DNA of 63,610 bases, the filler included, from Reclinomonas americana ATCC 50394 (taxonomy: Eukaryota): assembly GCA_048213135.1 (NCBI GenBank). It is 17 parts of 17 records of this genome, joined end to end, with 100 filler letters (N's around TTAATTAATTAA, not from the genome) between each part and the next. Parts side by side here need not be neighbours in the genome. Positions count along the whole stretch, not along the records: positions 20,154 to 27,865 come from AFZH01023648.1; 16 more parts are not named here. One strand, given 5' to 3'. The notes under the pieces were generated by a model. It worked only from the letters and a program-made list of their open reading frames with translations, was not told the DNA's origin and ran no database searches. Of this stretch, positions 20,154 through 27,300 are shown piece after piece. How positions within the stretch are numbered: the first letter of the stretch is position 1; each line of letters opens with the position of its first letter. The position numbers and the translations under genes are program-made.

Positions 20154-23100
20154 GCACCACTTGGTTGCGCAGTGCTGTCGTCAGGTTCGAGAGCACCGGT
20201 GCAGCGGTCCACGTAGTGTCTGCCGATGGCTGTATGTCGCCACGCTGACATGTCAGTGGAGAGCTGAACAGAAAACAAAGGGAGAGCGCGGCAGGCACAC
20301 ACACCGAGATACCACGATCGACCAGCATGAGCTGTCGGAGCGTGTCCAGCATCTCCACCTTGGGCATCGCCGGCACAACTTCGGGAATTACCAGCAAATT
20401 GAACCTGGTGTGTTACCGCACGATTGTGTGAGCACACAAGACGACACATACATGTGCGTGCTGCATGCGCGCTCGCCAAACCATGTGATGGTGCCTTCAC
20501 GAATTTGACCCTCCAGAATGAAGGCCGCAGTGCCAAGGCACCGCACATCGTCACGGCAAGCCGTGAATCCGCTCGTGAATGAGGCACTCTTGTCGGAGGG
20601 CGTGGGCTCCAACGGTCGTCCCCAGGTGGTGGTCGCCGCCTCCCACGGACCAATGGCGCCGTACTCGGTGAGCATCCACGGCTGCTGATAGTCTGCGCGG
20701 AGAAGGGTCAGCGTTCATGAACGCAGCTTGCAGCTTTAGAAAACAGACGCACTCTGATTGTCGAGTTCGCCAGGAGAGAACGATGCACTGGCAAAGGCGT
20801 TGGCTCCCAGCACGTCAATGTTAGGCATGTTGGTTTGTTTCTGCACCAGTCCTGATGAGTGTATGTGCAAGCAAGGCACATAAGGAAACAGACGCACCAG
20901 AGCTGCTTTGCCGAGGAACACCGACGCCACCGTGGTTATGGTCAAGTGATTGGGGTCTGCGGCCTTGACGGCTGCGGCAACCTTGTCGACGCCAGCAAAG
21001 ATCCGCGACCATTGACTCTGCGTGCGGGAAGCGAGGGGAATAATGTCAGAAAGATCGCACTGTGAGAGAACAAGAAGCATTCACACATTGTACCTGCGCC
21101 GCCTGCAGTTCGGTCTCGTTGCCCAGCACCCACGCCATCACAGCCGGGTGATTCTTGTACTTGTTGACATTGGCCACCACTGCAGCCACCTGCGCCAGCT
21201 CGGCCGCGCTTCCCGAACCATCTGACGATGAAATGTGAGCGACGGTGTTCCCTTCTTTTTCTCAAGACTGCGCAGACGCAACAGGTGACAGTGGTGCCGT
21301 CGATGGCCAAGTCCAGGCCCACGAGACTACACGCAGAACACTACGTCAGCGCAGCAAGGAGAGGAAGTAAGAGGTGGAAAAATACACGCAACACTTTCAC
21401 GCCCTCGGAGTAGGCCTTGTCAAGGAACGTACCGCCTGCATGACACACATACACATGAGTTCGTGACGGTGACGAACCGCTGGTCGTTATTCTTGTGTCA
21501 CACACACCATTCAGCTGCTCAATCTGGTAGGTGCGCACAGTGTTGCCGCCACCTTGCACAAACGCTGCTCTGTCGCCAATACCACTGGCTCCGTAAATGC
21601 GGTAGGGGGCACCACACACTTGCAGGTTCCACCTGCTGCGCGAGCCCAATGTACCGCCGGCGACCACTGTAGTTGAGACAGTGGTGAGTGAGACTGGAAG
21701 CAGCGGGGAAGCTCCATCAAATGACAATTACCTTGTGCAGTAGAGACGCAACCGTCCACCTGCGTTGCGAGACAAAGAGATAGTACGGTATGGTGAGACA
21801 AGGTGAAACCGGCTACAGTCAGTGTAACTGCAAGACGCAACGCATTTGTCAGCGGTCGTACAAGGCGAGCCGCAGGTTGTGCCCTTGAAGCCCGGGGCGC
21901 AACGACTGTGCGCATCGTGTCAGTCTGGTGCTCTCACGATCATCGAGACGACAGGAAGACATCGCACGTACCACGTGTTCGATGGCAAGCACACACCGCC
22001 GTTCAGCTGCGCAGTAGTGCACTCAGTAAGAAAATTGGAGATGACATGAATCGTATCTTGGGTCTCTGCATTGCGCAACACAGCCACTGGTGGAACAACC
22101 GATGCCGGTCGAAGCAGTGATGGTGAAAGACTTGGTCAGCTTCGCTCCATGCGCATCAGTTGCCGTGACCGAAATGGGGATTGCTGCGCATCACACACTG
22201 GTGAGTACGATGTATCTATCCCTCAACGTGCACGAGCTTGCCAACACGCACATGCGAGAGTAAGCCCGGCAGCCTTGCTGACAAGCGACATGCCACTGAC
22301 AGCCAGTGACGACGACGCGTCGGTGAGTGTGAGCGTGAAAGTGTCGCCCACATCGGGGTCCGACACCGTGACGGTGGCAATGACAGCATTCAGTGCAGCC
22401 GGCGGCACGTAGATGAGCGACGAGAGAGTGATGTCCGTCGGCGGCTGATTGGAGGCATTCAGCGCAAAGGCTTTCAGGAAGGATAGGCCAGCAGAGTTTG
22501 TACTGCTAACGGTGAAAATCAGCGGTGCCTCTGCATGCATCACCAACAACAACAAGTCAGAATAACAGTCACACCATCGGGCTTCCTCATAACACCGCAA
22601 CTCGACAGGTTGTTCACAGCGGCCTTCAGTGACGACCCACTGAACGTCAGCAACGCGGCATCCGTGCCTGACAGTGAGTATGAAAATGAAGTATGCGTGG
22701 GATCTGGATCGGTGGTGGAGAACACGGCAATTGTAGTGCCGAGAGCCACCGGTGGCAGGTACGAGAAGGAGGTGATGGTGATGTCGGTCGGCGCCGACGC
22801 CGACATGCCAGTGAACACAAACTGCTTCTGGAAGGTCACTCCATTCGCGTCCTTGGCCTGCAGCTGCACGGTCAGCGATGTGTCGGTGAGACCGGCGACC
22901 GCGCTTTGGAGCTGTGTGTTGCTGATTGCGAGCTTGCTGGCCGACGTGCCACCAGTGATCGTAAATGTGCACGTCACTATTCACCACCCGGGTAAGCTTC
23001 CTTTTGGCGACAATGAATGCAAAGAAGTAGTGCGCCAACCTGCGGCGCCAGTAGTGTCGACAGCCGACAGTGTGGCGATGACGGCATTCAGCGCCAGCGG

Positions 23101-26100: not shown

Positions 26101-27300
26101 CTGCTGAGCGAGATGCTCGTTGGTGCAACATTGACAACCACTGCAGAGATGGGATGGAGAGAGTGAGAGGAGAGATGATCGGGGACCTGAAAATGATAGT
26201 GACAATACCTTCGTTGATGGTGAACGACTTCTGGAATGTGTTGCCGTGGCCGTCGTTGGTCTGAATGGTGATGGTCAGTCCGCTGCCGGTGAGTCCGGCC
26301 ACATTGGAGCGCAGCTGCGAGCCGCTAATGTTGAACTTGGTGGCCACGGCACCCGACACAATCGTATACGTAAATGTGTCGGTGGCGTCTGGATCGACCG
26401 TCGACAGGGTACCGACAACGGCATTCAGCGCAAGCGGAGGCGTGTACGTGGTGGACGACAAGATAATGTCGGTGGGGGGTGAGTTGGTCGGTGTGCAGCC
26501 GACATTGGTGGTCGGGTTGCAGCCGCAGGTTGTTCCGGCTGGCGGGGGGCGAAGTGGAGTGAGGGAGGAAAGGAGTGGAGGAAGTGGAGAGGCAGAGGGT
26601 GACGCAACTGTATGGCGCATTGCAAATGCACTTGCCGGTGACCGCGTCACACGAGCCGCGGCCATTGCATGTCTCTACGGGGCGGCATTCGCATTGCGCA
26701 CCACCCTGCGACACACAGCTCATCAGTGAGTTCGCGAATGGGTGAGCGGTACAATAGAGGTGACGCGTACCAGTCCAGCGTAGCACTTGCACTGACCGCC
26801 CACACAGTCGCCATTGTTGTTGCTGCGCAGACACCACAAAAGGAAGCGATCGTCAGCAAGTTATTAAAAATACGCGCACACACCACGCGAACAGGGGCGC
26901 ACCAGTCGGCGCGAGTGGTGCAAGCACCACGAGTGTGGAACCTCGCGGCACTGAGTGCCGGCGATTGAAGAGTGCTGGCTGCTGCTGCCTTGAGCTGCAG
27001 CGGATTCTCGGCCGCCAACAGCGGGCGACCTGTGGCCAAGTGAAACGGAAGATGTGCTGCGTCGATCCACGGCAAGTCGTCGACAGCGTACTCGATGGTC
27101 CGCGGACCAAAGCCCACGACGTCGATACTGTGTGCCGAGGAATGAGATCACGGAACGGCAACAGCACAAAGGCAGAGTGTGTGTCGACGACGAAACTTGT
27201 AGCTCTGGCCACGGAGTGCCGAGAAGCTGCACTCCAGTGCATGTGATCCTGCAGCATTGCTGAGCGGTGAGAGCAGAAACAGACAGACAGACATGTCGAC
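20154..27300 (-). CDS. Large extracellular multi-exon protein: about 6 cadherin-like repeats, many EGF-like repeats and a C-terminal GH2-like (clan GH-A) TIM barrel; start approximate, 3' end truncated
   Basis: Repeats PTDI.LSS..Y....N..VGTLSTVDPD..DTFTY and CNGHGTC..DGTC.C..GW.G..C. Barrel motifs GGNTVRTY, FLDKAY, YKNHPAVMAWVLGNE, DPNH and PWMLTEYGAIGPWE..TTWGRPLE. All exons are on one strand with GT-AG introns. Confidence 0.8.

Follow-up and report, generated by a model that had tools for sequence, protein, structure and literature searches.

A spliced gene of Reclinomonas americana that probably joins an EGF/cadherin-fold stalk to a glycoside hydrolase family 158 barrel

Introduction

How does a glycosidase of bacterial type come to lie in an intron-rich protist gene, behind long runs of EGF-like and cadherin-like modules, and is this one gene at all? 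The question is raised by contig AFZH01023648.1 of Reclinomonas americana ATCC 50394 (assembly GCA_048213135.1). It was analysed within a stretch of 63,610 nucleotides, referred to here as the window, which consists of 17 separate pieces. The joints between the pieces are made of 44 N, 12 bases and 44 N, and bacterial and intron-rich eukaryotic pieces are mixed among them. The contig covers positions 20154-27865 of the window (7712 bp, GC content 0.58). It is entirely taken up by the gene, which lies on the minus strand and is truncated at both contig ends. All features of the gene given below are on this strand.

An earlier note on this DNA had described, at 20154..27300, a spliced gene fusing bacterial-type cadherin repeats, EGF arrays and a glycosidase resembling glycoside hydrolase (GH) family 2. 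The parts are indeed known ones in an unusual combination, and the gene is real and probably single. The reading favoured here, with moderate confidence, is that one truncated gene encodes a protein of the secretory pathway. Its EGF/cadherin stalk would carry a GH158 barrel predicted to cleave beta-1,3-glucans outside the cytoplasm.

The catalytic barrel belongs to family GH158

The catalytic (beta/alpha)8 barrel is encoded by seven exons at 20475..21643. It was recognised from PDB GH158 chains and from a GH158 profile built from 59 full-length homologues. Among the PDB sequences, the last barrel exon matched 9oro_A, labelled 'Glycoside hydrolase family 158' and 'GH158(Pro)', at E 3e-12 and 6pal_A at E 7e-11. 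The entry 6pal is labelled 'Uncharacterized protein' in the PDB table, and we take it to be BuGH158. The exon with the LGNE motif matched 9oro_A at E 1.3e-4. For the first open reading frame (ORF) of the barrel, no significant match was obtained among the PDB sequences.

The spliced barrel aligned to the profile with 232 bits (E 4e-73) over profile positions 34-287 of 429. This alignment spans seven exon junctions and contains two short query inserts and one profile insert. Moreover, four unspliced ORFs match the profile in colinear order, and the GH158 assignment is therefore independent of the splice model. On these alignments, the barrel is assigned to GH158, a family of endo-beta-1,3-glucanases in clan GH-A.

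The 'GH2-like' label of the earlier note has to be replaced, as the LGNE exon reached GH2 and GH5 chains only at E 0.12 or worse, against the much better value for GH158. The only Pfam match of the barrel is Glyco_hydro_2_C, with 24.3 bits on the LGNE exon. The same family was matched, mostly weakly, by 20 of 24 longer GH158 homologues, and three of the 24 matched no family at all. The impression of a GH2 enzyme can thus be explained by true GH158 proteins also matching Glyco_hydro_2_C. GH2 membership was rejected on these scores and on the domain order, since EGF rather than the sugar-binding and immunoglobulin-like domains of GH2 precedes the barrel.

Further searches were made with single exons. 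An exhaustive HMMER search with one barrel exon gave 263 proteins at E <= 0.001, most of them 400-450 residues long, and the best match was 46% identical across that one exon. The last barrel exon had no match at E 0.01 when longer proteins were searched by means of a word index. In the Protein Atlas, a barrel exon found bacterial fragment clusters only (scores 0.89-0.92). The sole metagenome locus matched by the last barrel exon (L001) was discarded as a chance peptide-pattern match, as it does not match the GH158 profile.

The family resemblance ends after the motif TWFG. The tail that follows (20154..20474) has one probable intron, after which the frame is open to the contig end. In GH158, a C-terminal immunoglobulin-like domain of eight strands packs against the barrel and shapes the cleft, and in BuGH158 it reaches a loop over the cleft, according to passages of the structural report (PMC7157763). 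Profile positions 288-429, which correspond to this domain, match nothing in the tail or in the rest of the window. The contig stops about 320 nucleotides past the barrel, and the domain would lie beyond its end.

Catalytic and conserved residues of the barrel

Both catalytic glutamates of clan GH-A are present where the earlier note had placed them. The predicted general acid/base pair after strand 4, Asn1327-Glu1328 (21115..21120), aligns with the NE of 9oro_A, and the glutamate of LGNE occupies 21115-21117. The predicted nucleophile after strand 7, Glu1414 of LTEYG (20664..20666), aligns with the TEFG glutamate of the same chain. Among the 59 homologues, the Asn-Glu columns are conserved at 97-98% and the Glu1414 column at 98%. 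Glu1328 corresponds to Glu143 of GH158(Pro) and to E137 in the N136-E137 pair of BuGH158, while Glu1414 corresponds to Glu229 and E220, respectively. The paper numbering of GH158(Pro), used here, equals the chain number plus 8, an offset derived here from three residues.

Two characterised enzymes serve for comparison, the Bacteroides uniformis enzyme BuGH158 (PMC7157763) and GH158(Pro), which is processive (PMC13195107; PDB 9oro and related entries). Both have a barrel of clan GH-A in which, as in the protist protein, Asn-Glu follows strand 4 and Glu follows strand 7. Passages of the two reports state that the BuGH158 mutants N136A, E137A and E220A are inactive (PMC7157763) and that Glu143 and Glu229 form the catalytic pair of GH158(Pro) (PMC13195107). 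The passages on GH158(Pro) also name Trp77, Phe278, Tyr291 and Trp236 as stacking residues, describe Glu285 as required for translocation, and give laminarin, curdlan and mixed-linkage glucan as substrates (PMC13195107). Of these residues, Trp236, Phe278 and Glu285 are kept in the protist barrel as W1421, F1462 and E1470. Tyr291 is replaced by Phe, which is also the profile consensus there, and Trp77 by Tyr.

In the 59 homologues, 35 columns are conserved at 90% or more. The protist barrel covers 29 of them and keeps 27. The two losses are a proline (93%), which is Leu1360 here, and a tryptophan invariant in 59/59 homologues, which is Leu1464. In comparison with BuGH158 and GH158(Pro), the protist barrel has Leu for the Trp of the FLWG motif and contains seven spliceosomal introns. 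In front of it, EGF and cadherin modules of about 1200 residues in all take the place of a signal peptide or lipobox. The passages on GH158(Pro) do not mention the invariant tryptophan (PMC13195107). At 20510-20525, the frame reads Leu-Glu at the spot of this tryptophan, and a TGG triplet is present out of frame. Either divergence by small indels or a local assembly error may have produced the Leu-Glu.

Cadherin-fold repeats and EGF-like modules of the stalk

Six repeats of about 92 residues each flank the central EGF array. R1 (26130..26476), R2 (25782..26123) and R3 (25374..25775) lie before it, and R4 (22798..23208), R5 (22448..22791) and R6 (22104..22441) after it. R1 was identified by database matches, an AlphaFold2 model and fold matches in the PDB, and R2 was aligned to R1 and bacterial repeats. 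R3 is split over three exons, one of only 22 nucleotides, and the curated splicing restores its repeat pattern; R4, R5 and R6 were delimited by repeat alignment.

The Pfam Cadherin model (PF00028) found no match at E up to 0.1 in five ORF pieces spanning the repeats. A search with R1 in a collection of 5.8 billion sequences gave 59 proteins among 814 candidates, with E-values down to 1e-121. Nearly all of these matches carry a precomputed PF00028 annotation, and the named ones are mostly bacterial proteins described as 'cadherin domain-containing'. One match reads, by its sequence, as a cadherin of animal type that also has EGF modules. The cadherin homology of R1 is only transitive, through 39% identity to the part of the bacterial protein P0038 that Pfam assigns to Cadherin.

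The fold is supported by the structural model. R1 was modelled from an input of only seven sequences with a predicted local distance difference test score of 91.8 and a predicted template modelling score of 0.81. The model is a seven-strand sandwich. Among the PDB matches listed by Foldseek, all are extracellular cadherin domains (cadherin, protocadherin, desmoglein, CELSR) with template modelling scores up to 0.78, and the E-values are weak, reaching 0.001 or below in one listed match only. A PDB sequence search with R1 gave nothing significant. On the basis of the model, the repeats have a cadherin fold.

The calcium-ligand motifs of cadherins are the xEN Glu, the LDRE/NYE-type Glu, the DxNDN/NE.P linker, the DxD and the C-terminal Asp. 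When the protist repeats were aligned with bacterial and animal ones, the xEN Glu, the NYE/DFE motif and the acidic NE.P linker were missing from each of the six. Four of them keep DxD, and five keep the late Asp. The repeats thus belong to the bacterial type of cadherin fold, and linkers rigidified by calcium, as in classical cadherins, are probably absent. With bacterial cadherin-domain surface proteins (e.g., P0001-P0036, P0038) they share 35-50% identity per repeat and the signature PTDI..LS plus DPD.GDT.TY. In contrast to those proteins, they are without the three motifs and fail the Pfam Cadherin model.

The spliced product contains 18 CxC..G..C cores, two N-terminal, 15 in the array and one before the barrel. 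The two N-terminal EGF-like modules (26483..26922; exons 1-4) have the motif at residues 53 and 85, and their match to EGF_2 is weak and below the cut-off. The central array (23215..25373) has 89 cysteines in 494 residues. The last module (21842..22103) extends over exons 22-24, with codons shared over the introns, and has its motif at residue 1180. Pfam EGF models scored above the cut-off in 3 of 19 ORF pieces, all in the central array. The scores were 33.7, 31.9 and 28.3 bits for EGF_2 (cut-off 22.1) and 28, 38.2 and 37.1 bits for EGF_Teneurin (cut-off 24.3). From their motif and profile matches, the modules are identified as EGF-like. The domain order of the earlier note is borne out, with two EGF modules, three cadherin-fold repeats, about 15 EGF modules, three further cadherin-fold repeats, one EGF module and the TIM barrel.

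Gene model

The minus strand shows a series of open-frame pieces that switch frame and bear, one after another, EGF patterns, PTDI...DPD.GDT repeats and barrel motifs. Short pyrimidine-rich stretches with GT and AG borders separate these pieces. In two ab initio dynamic-programming runs, the barrel was cut by too many introns and several acceptors were overlooked, and a hand-curated model took their place. Its junctions were guided by the internal repeats and, for the barrel, by homology, which establishes the exon structure there.

In the curated model, 32 exons between 27029 and 20452 make up an uninterrupted reading of 1484 codons. All 31 introns are of the GT-AG type and 55-82 nucleotides long (median 68), with CAG (27), TAG (3) or AAG (1) as acceptor. 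A GTTGCG donor is found in 7 of the 31 introns, and the exon base before it is never G in these seven. By comparison, an exon-final G precedes 21 of the 24 remaining donors. Five of the GTTGCG donors belong to stalk introns and two to barrel introns (after exons 27 and 28). The latter two are confirmed by homology, because the barrel fits the GH158 profile nearly gap-free. The spliced, eukaryotic nature of the gene, as claimed earlier, is hence well founded.

The most upstream open exon (26903..27147) runs into the first EGF module. Its frame is open from 27147, and the next exon is joined in phase. Of the span given in the earlier note, the gene itself stands, and its 5' limit at 27300 is not supported; 27147 is where the open frame of the most upstream exon that can be relied on ends. 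Further upstream in the contig, neither a convincing start codon nor a signal peptide was detected. Pfam gave no family match in the 5' ORFs, including those of 27148-27865, or in the tail after the barrel.

Relatives and origin of the barrel

Compared with its best matches, the whole barrel is 32-37% identical. The closest match (P0061) has relatives at 73 loci, all bacterial by record titles (Verrucomicrobiota, Planctomycetota, Bacteroidota, Lysobacteraceae). A quick maximum-likelihood tree of 82 rows was computed, for which three short or broken loci were dropped and the loci L001 and L074 left out. This phylogeny, a check proposed in the earlier note, places the protist barrel beside two proteins with a Shimodaira-Hasegawa-like approximate likelihood ratio test (SH-aLRT) value of 84. 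No well-supported clade includes it, and the naming of a donor was abandoned, as the tree gave no well-supported partner.

GH158-type barrels were also found in dinoflagellate records (Durusdinium trenchii), namely P0168, P0198, P0211 and P0212. In these proteins, the N-terminal segment is hydrophobic and the tail is rich in Cys, and Pfam found no domain in P0168 and P0198. From these records, GH158-type barrels are not unique to this protist among eukaryotes. As eukaryotic barrels of the same type, the P0168 cluster with its Durusdinium trenchii records and P0198 resemble the protist barrel, but they are only 27-31% identical to it. The proteins P0168, P0215 and P0198 form a separate, well-supported clade (SH-aLRT 99) that excludes the protist barrel.

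The nearest relatives of both the barrel and the cadherin-fold repeats are bacterial, in agreement with the bacterial resemblance seen earlier in both. The horizontal acquisition proposed at the time remains plausible. A donor is not nameable, given the very long branch of the barrel, its want of a well-supported partner and its identity of only 32-37%. Judging from the sequence relationships, a bacterial origin of the barrel is plausible but would be old.

Modular GH158 proteins are known from bacteria (P0070, P0076, P0096, P0155 and others). As in the protist gene, the barrel is joined there to surface or binding modules that are not catalytic and serve its extracellular display. The bacterial partners differ and include the carbohydrate-binding modules CBM6, CBM4_9, CBM96 and CBM56, a GH3 fusion and type IX secretion tails, mostly placed C-terminal to the barrel. 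Of 150 longer GH158 homologues listed, 24 were scanned, and none has EGF or cadherin domains. Among the publications found to mention GH158, only one, by its title a microbiome survey of carbohydrate-active enzymes, also mentions cadherin. Those that also contain 'eukaryotic' are, by their titles, about bacteria, and no GH158 publication considered by title deals with eukaryotic members. The earlier statement that no known protein has this architecture agrees with these scans and titles.

Proposed function and competing explanations

The product is proposed to be a large protein of the secretory pathway, translated from a single transcript. Its EGF modules, at least 18 and rich in disulphides, and its six cadherin-fold repeats would form a long spacer or adhesive stalk, presumably anchored at one end. 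The barrel next to the stalk is predicted to act on beta-1,3-glucans, e.g., laminarin-type storage glucans, curdlan-like bacterial polymers or wall glucans of fungi and algae. Hydrolysis would proceed by a Koshland double displacement in which Glu1328 acts as the acid/base and Glu1414 as the nucleophile. The site of action may be the cell surface, the feeding groove or a food vacuole.

Several points weigh against this proposal. The splice model is a prediction, and outside the barrel its basis is repeat patterns and open frames only. A start codon, a signal peptide, a membrane anchor and a stop are all absent from the contig, and both gene ends lie beyond it. The protist barrel is the longest branch in the tree, with 2.83 changes per column, which could mean relaxed or changed function. 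Finally, Leu1464 (20514..20516), followed by a one-residue insertion, stands in the column of the family-invariant tryptophan, and this is mainly why enzymatic activity is not rated higher.

The passage from R6 to the barrel runs through exons of 104, 35, 64 and 28 nucleotides and introns of 73, 66, 82 and 65 nucleotides. The exons of 35 and 28 nucleotides have no homology support, and the ab initio model chose differently in places. Stalk and barrel might accordingly be two adjacent genes, or parts of a chimeric contig, wrongly joined by the splice model. This is highly improbable. No methionine codon is found from about residue 1120 to residue 1321, which already lies inside the barrel; the linker between the last EGF module and the barrel (21644..21759; exon 25 plus the first part of exon 26) has none either. 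The largest non-coding gap between R6 and the barrel measures 82 nucleotides. Because of the missing methionine and the small gaps, a single gene is likely. In addition, the codons shared within the last EGF module bind exons 22-24 together. Stalk and barrel agree in intron size and in acceptors, and both contain the rare GTTGCG donor. The barrel also begins exactly where the bacterial leader ends, as the profile match starts (position 34) directly after the hydrophobic N-terminal leader of the 59-protein consensus. The earlier note had singled out 21700-22200 as the place where a stop or polyA site would separate the two halves. The DNA has no stop or gene boundary there, and the spliced frame stays open through four ordinary introns of 65-82 nucleotides. 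Stalk and barrel are thus probably encoded by a single gene.

If the gene is single, its barrel may still serve another purpose than digestion. One such explanation is that the barrel no longer hydrolyses efficiently and has become a lectin-like head that binds beta-glucan on an adhesive stalk, for recognition of prey or surfaces. The replacement of the invariant tryptophan together with the insertion, the missing 93%-conserved proline and the very long terminal branch would fit such a loss. This explanation is rather unlikely, as the Asn-Glu pair and the nucleophile are intact, 27 of the 29 covered conserved columns are kept, and so are Trp236, Phe278 and Glu285, which the GH158(Pro) passages link to the substrate or to translocation. 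In dead enzymes, a catalytic residue is usually the first loss. The passages on GH158(Pro) also do not list the lost tryptophan as a substrate contact (PMC13195107). Alternatively, an active enzyme could remodel the organism's own beta-glucan cover (cyst wall, lorica or glycocalyx) instead of digesting prey or biofilm. Remodelling of the own wall is common among eukaryotic beta-1,3-glucanases, a stalked and surface-tethered enzyme would suit local remodelling, and nothing in the analysis specifically indicates prey. According to passages of the two reports, however, the characterised GH158 enzymes serve nutrient acquisition, in Bacteroides glucan-utilisation loci and in a biomass-degrading community (PMC7157763, PMC13195107), and remodelling of the own cover is considered quite unlikely.

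Returning to a secreted beta-1,3-glucan-cleaving enzyme, a broader idea can be put forward that is possible but doubtful. Enzymes, polysaccharide-degrading and others, displayed on long EGF/cadherin stalks might be the eukaryotic counterpart of bacterial surface glycan capture, put together from bacterial-type modules. The GH158 protein would then tether itself to beta-1,3-glucan on prey, biofilm matrix or detritus and pre-digest it around ingestion. Its barrel would have been acquired from bacteria long ago and would later have received seven introns and a eukaryotic stalk. GH158 is treated as a bacterial family in the publications considered, and here it lies inside an intron-rich eukaryotic gene. 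If the barrel is active, the use of GH158 to consume laminarin-type glucans would extend from bacteria to heterotrophic protists. The gene would also be a concrete case of a protist rebuilding bacterial-type modules into surface machinery.

Other parts of the window

The left neighbour of the contig in the window (18498-20053) holds a bacterial HlyD-type gene with RTX-like repeats and is unrelated to the gene. Further bacterial pieces include 16159-18397, where the genes are AidB- and HpaB-like, and 39466-50935, which codes for an ABC transporter, a 5'-nucleotidase and a periplasmic binding protein. The right neighbour (27966-29739) is of CT/GA low complexity (GC skew 0.30, AT skew 0.25) and contains long spurious open frames. 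An Rfam search of the whole window gave no match.

The minus strand of 5688-8231 has an open frame of 848 codons, with no Pfam match at E 1e-5. In the first eukaryotic contig, the plus strand at 2656-5140 carries parts of a gene for a GH35 beta-galactosidase, with Glyco_hydro_35 and its galactose-binding domain. The minus strand at 739-1458 has an exon that encodes part of O-phosphoseryl-tRNA(Sec) selenium transferase (SepSecS; Pfam E 3e-68), and its best database match is only 66% identical. This exon suggests that the protist makes selenoproteins.

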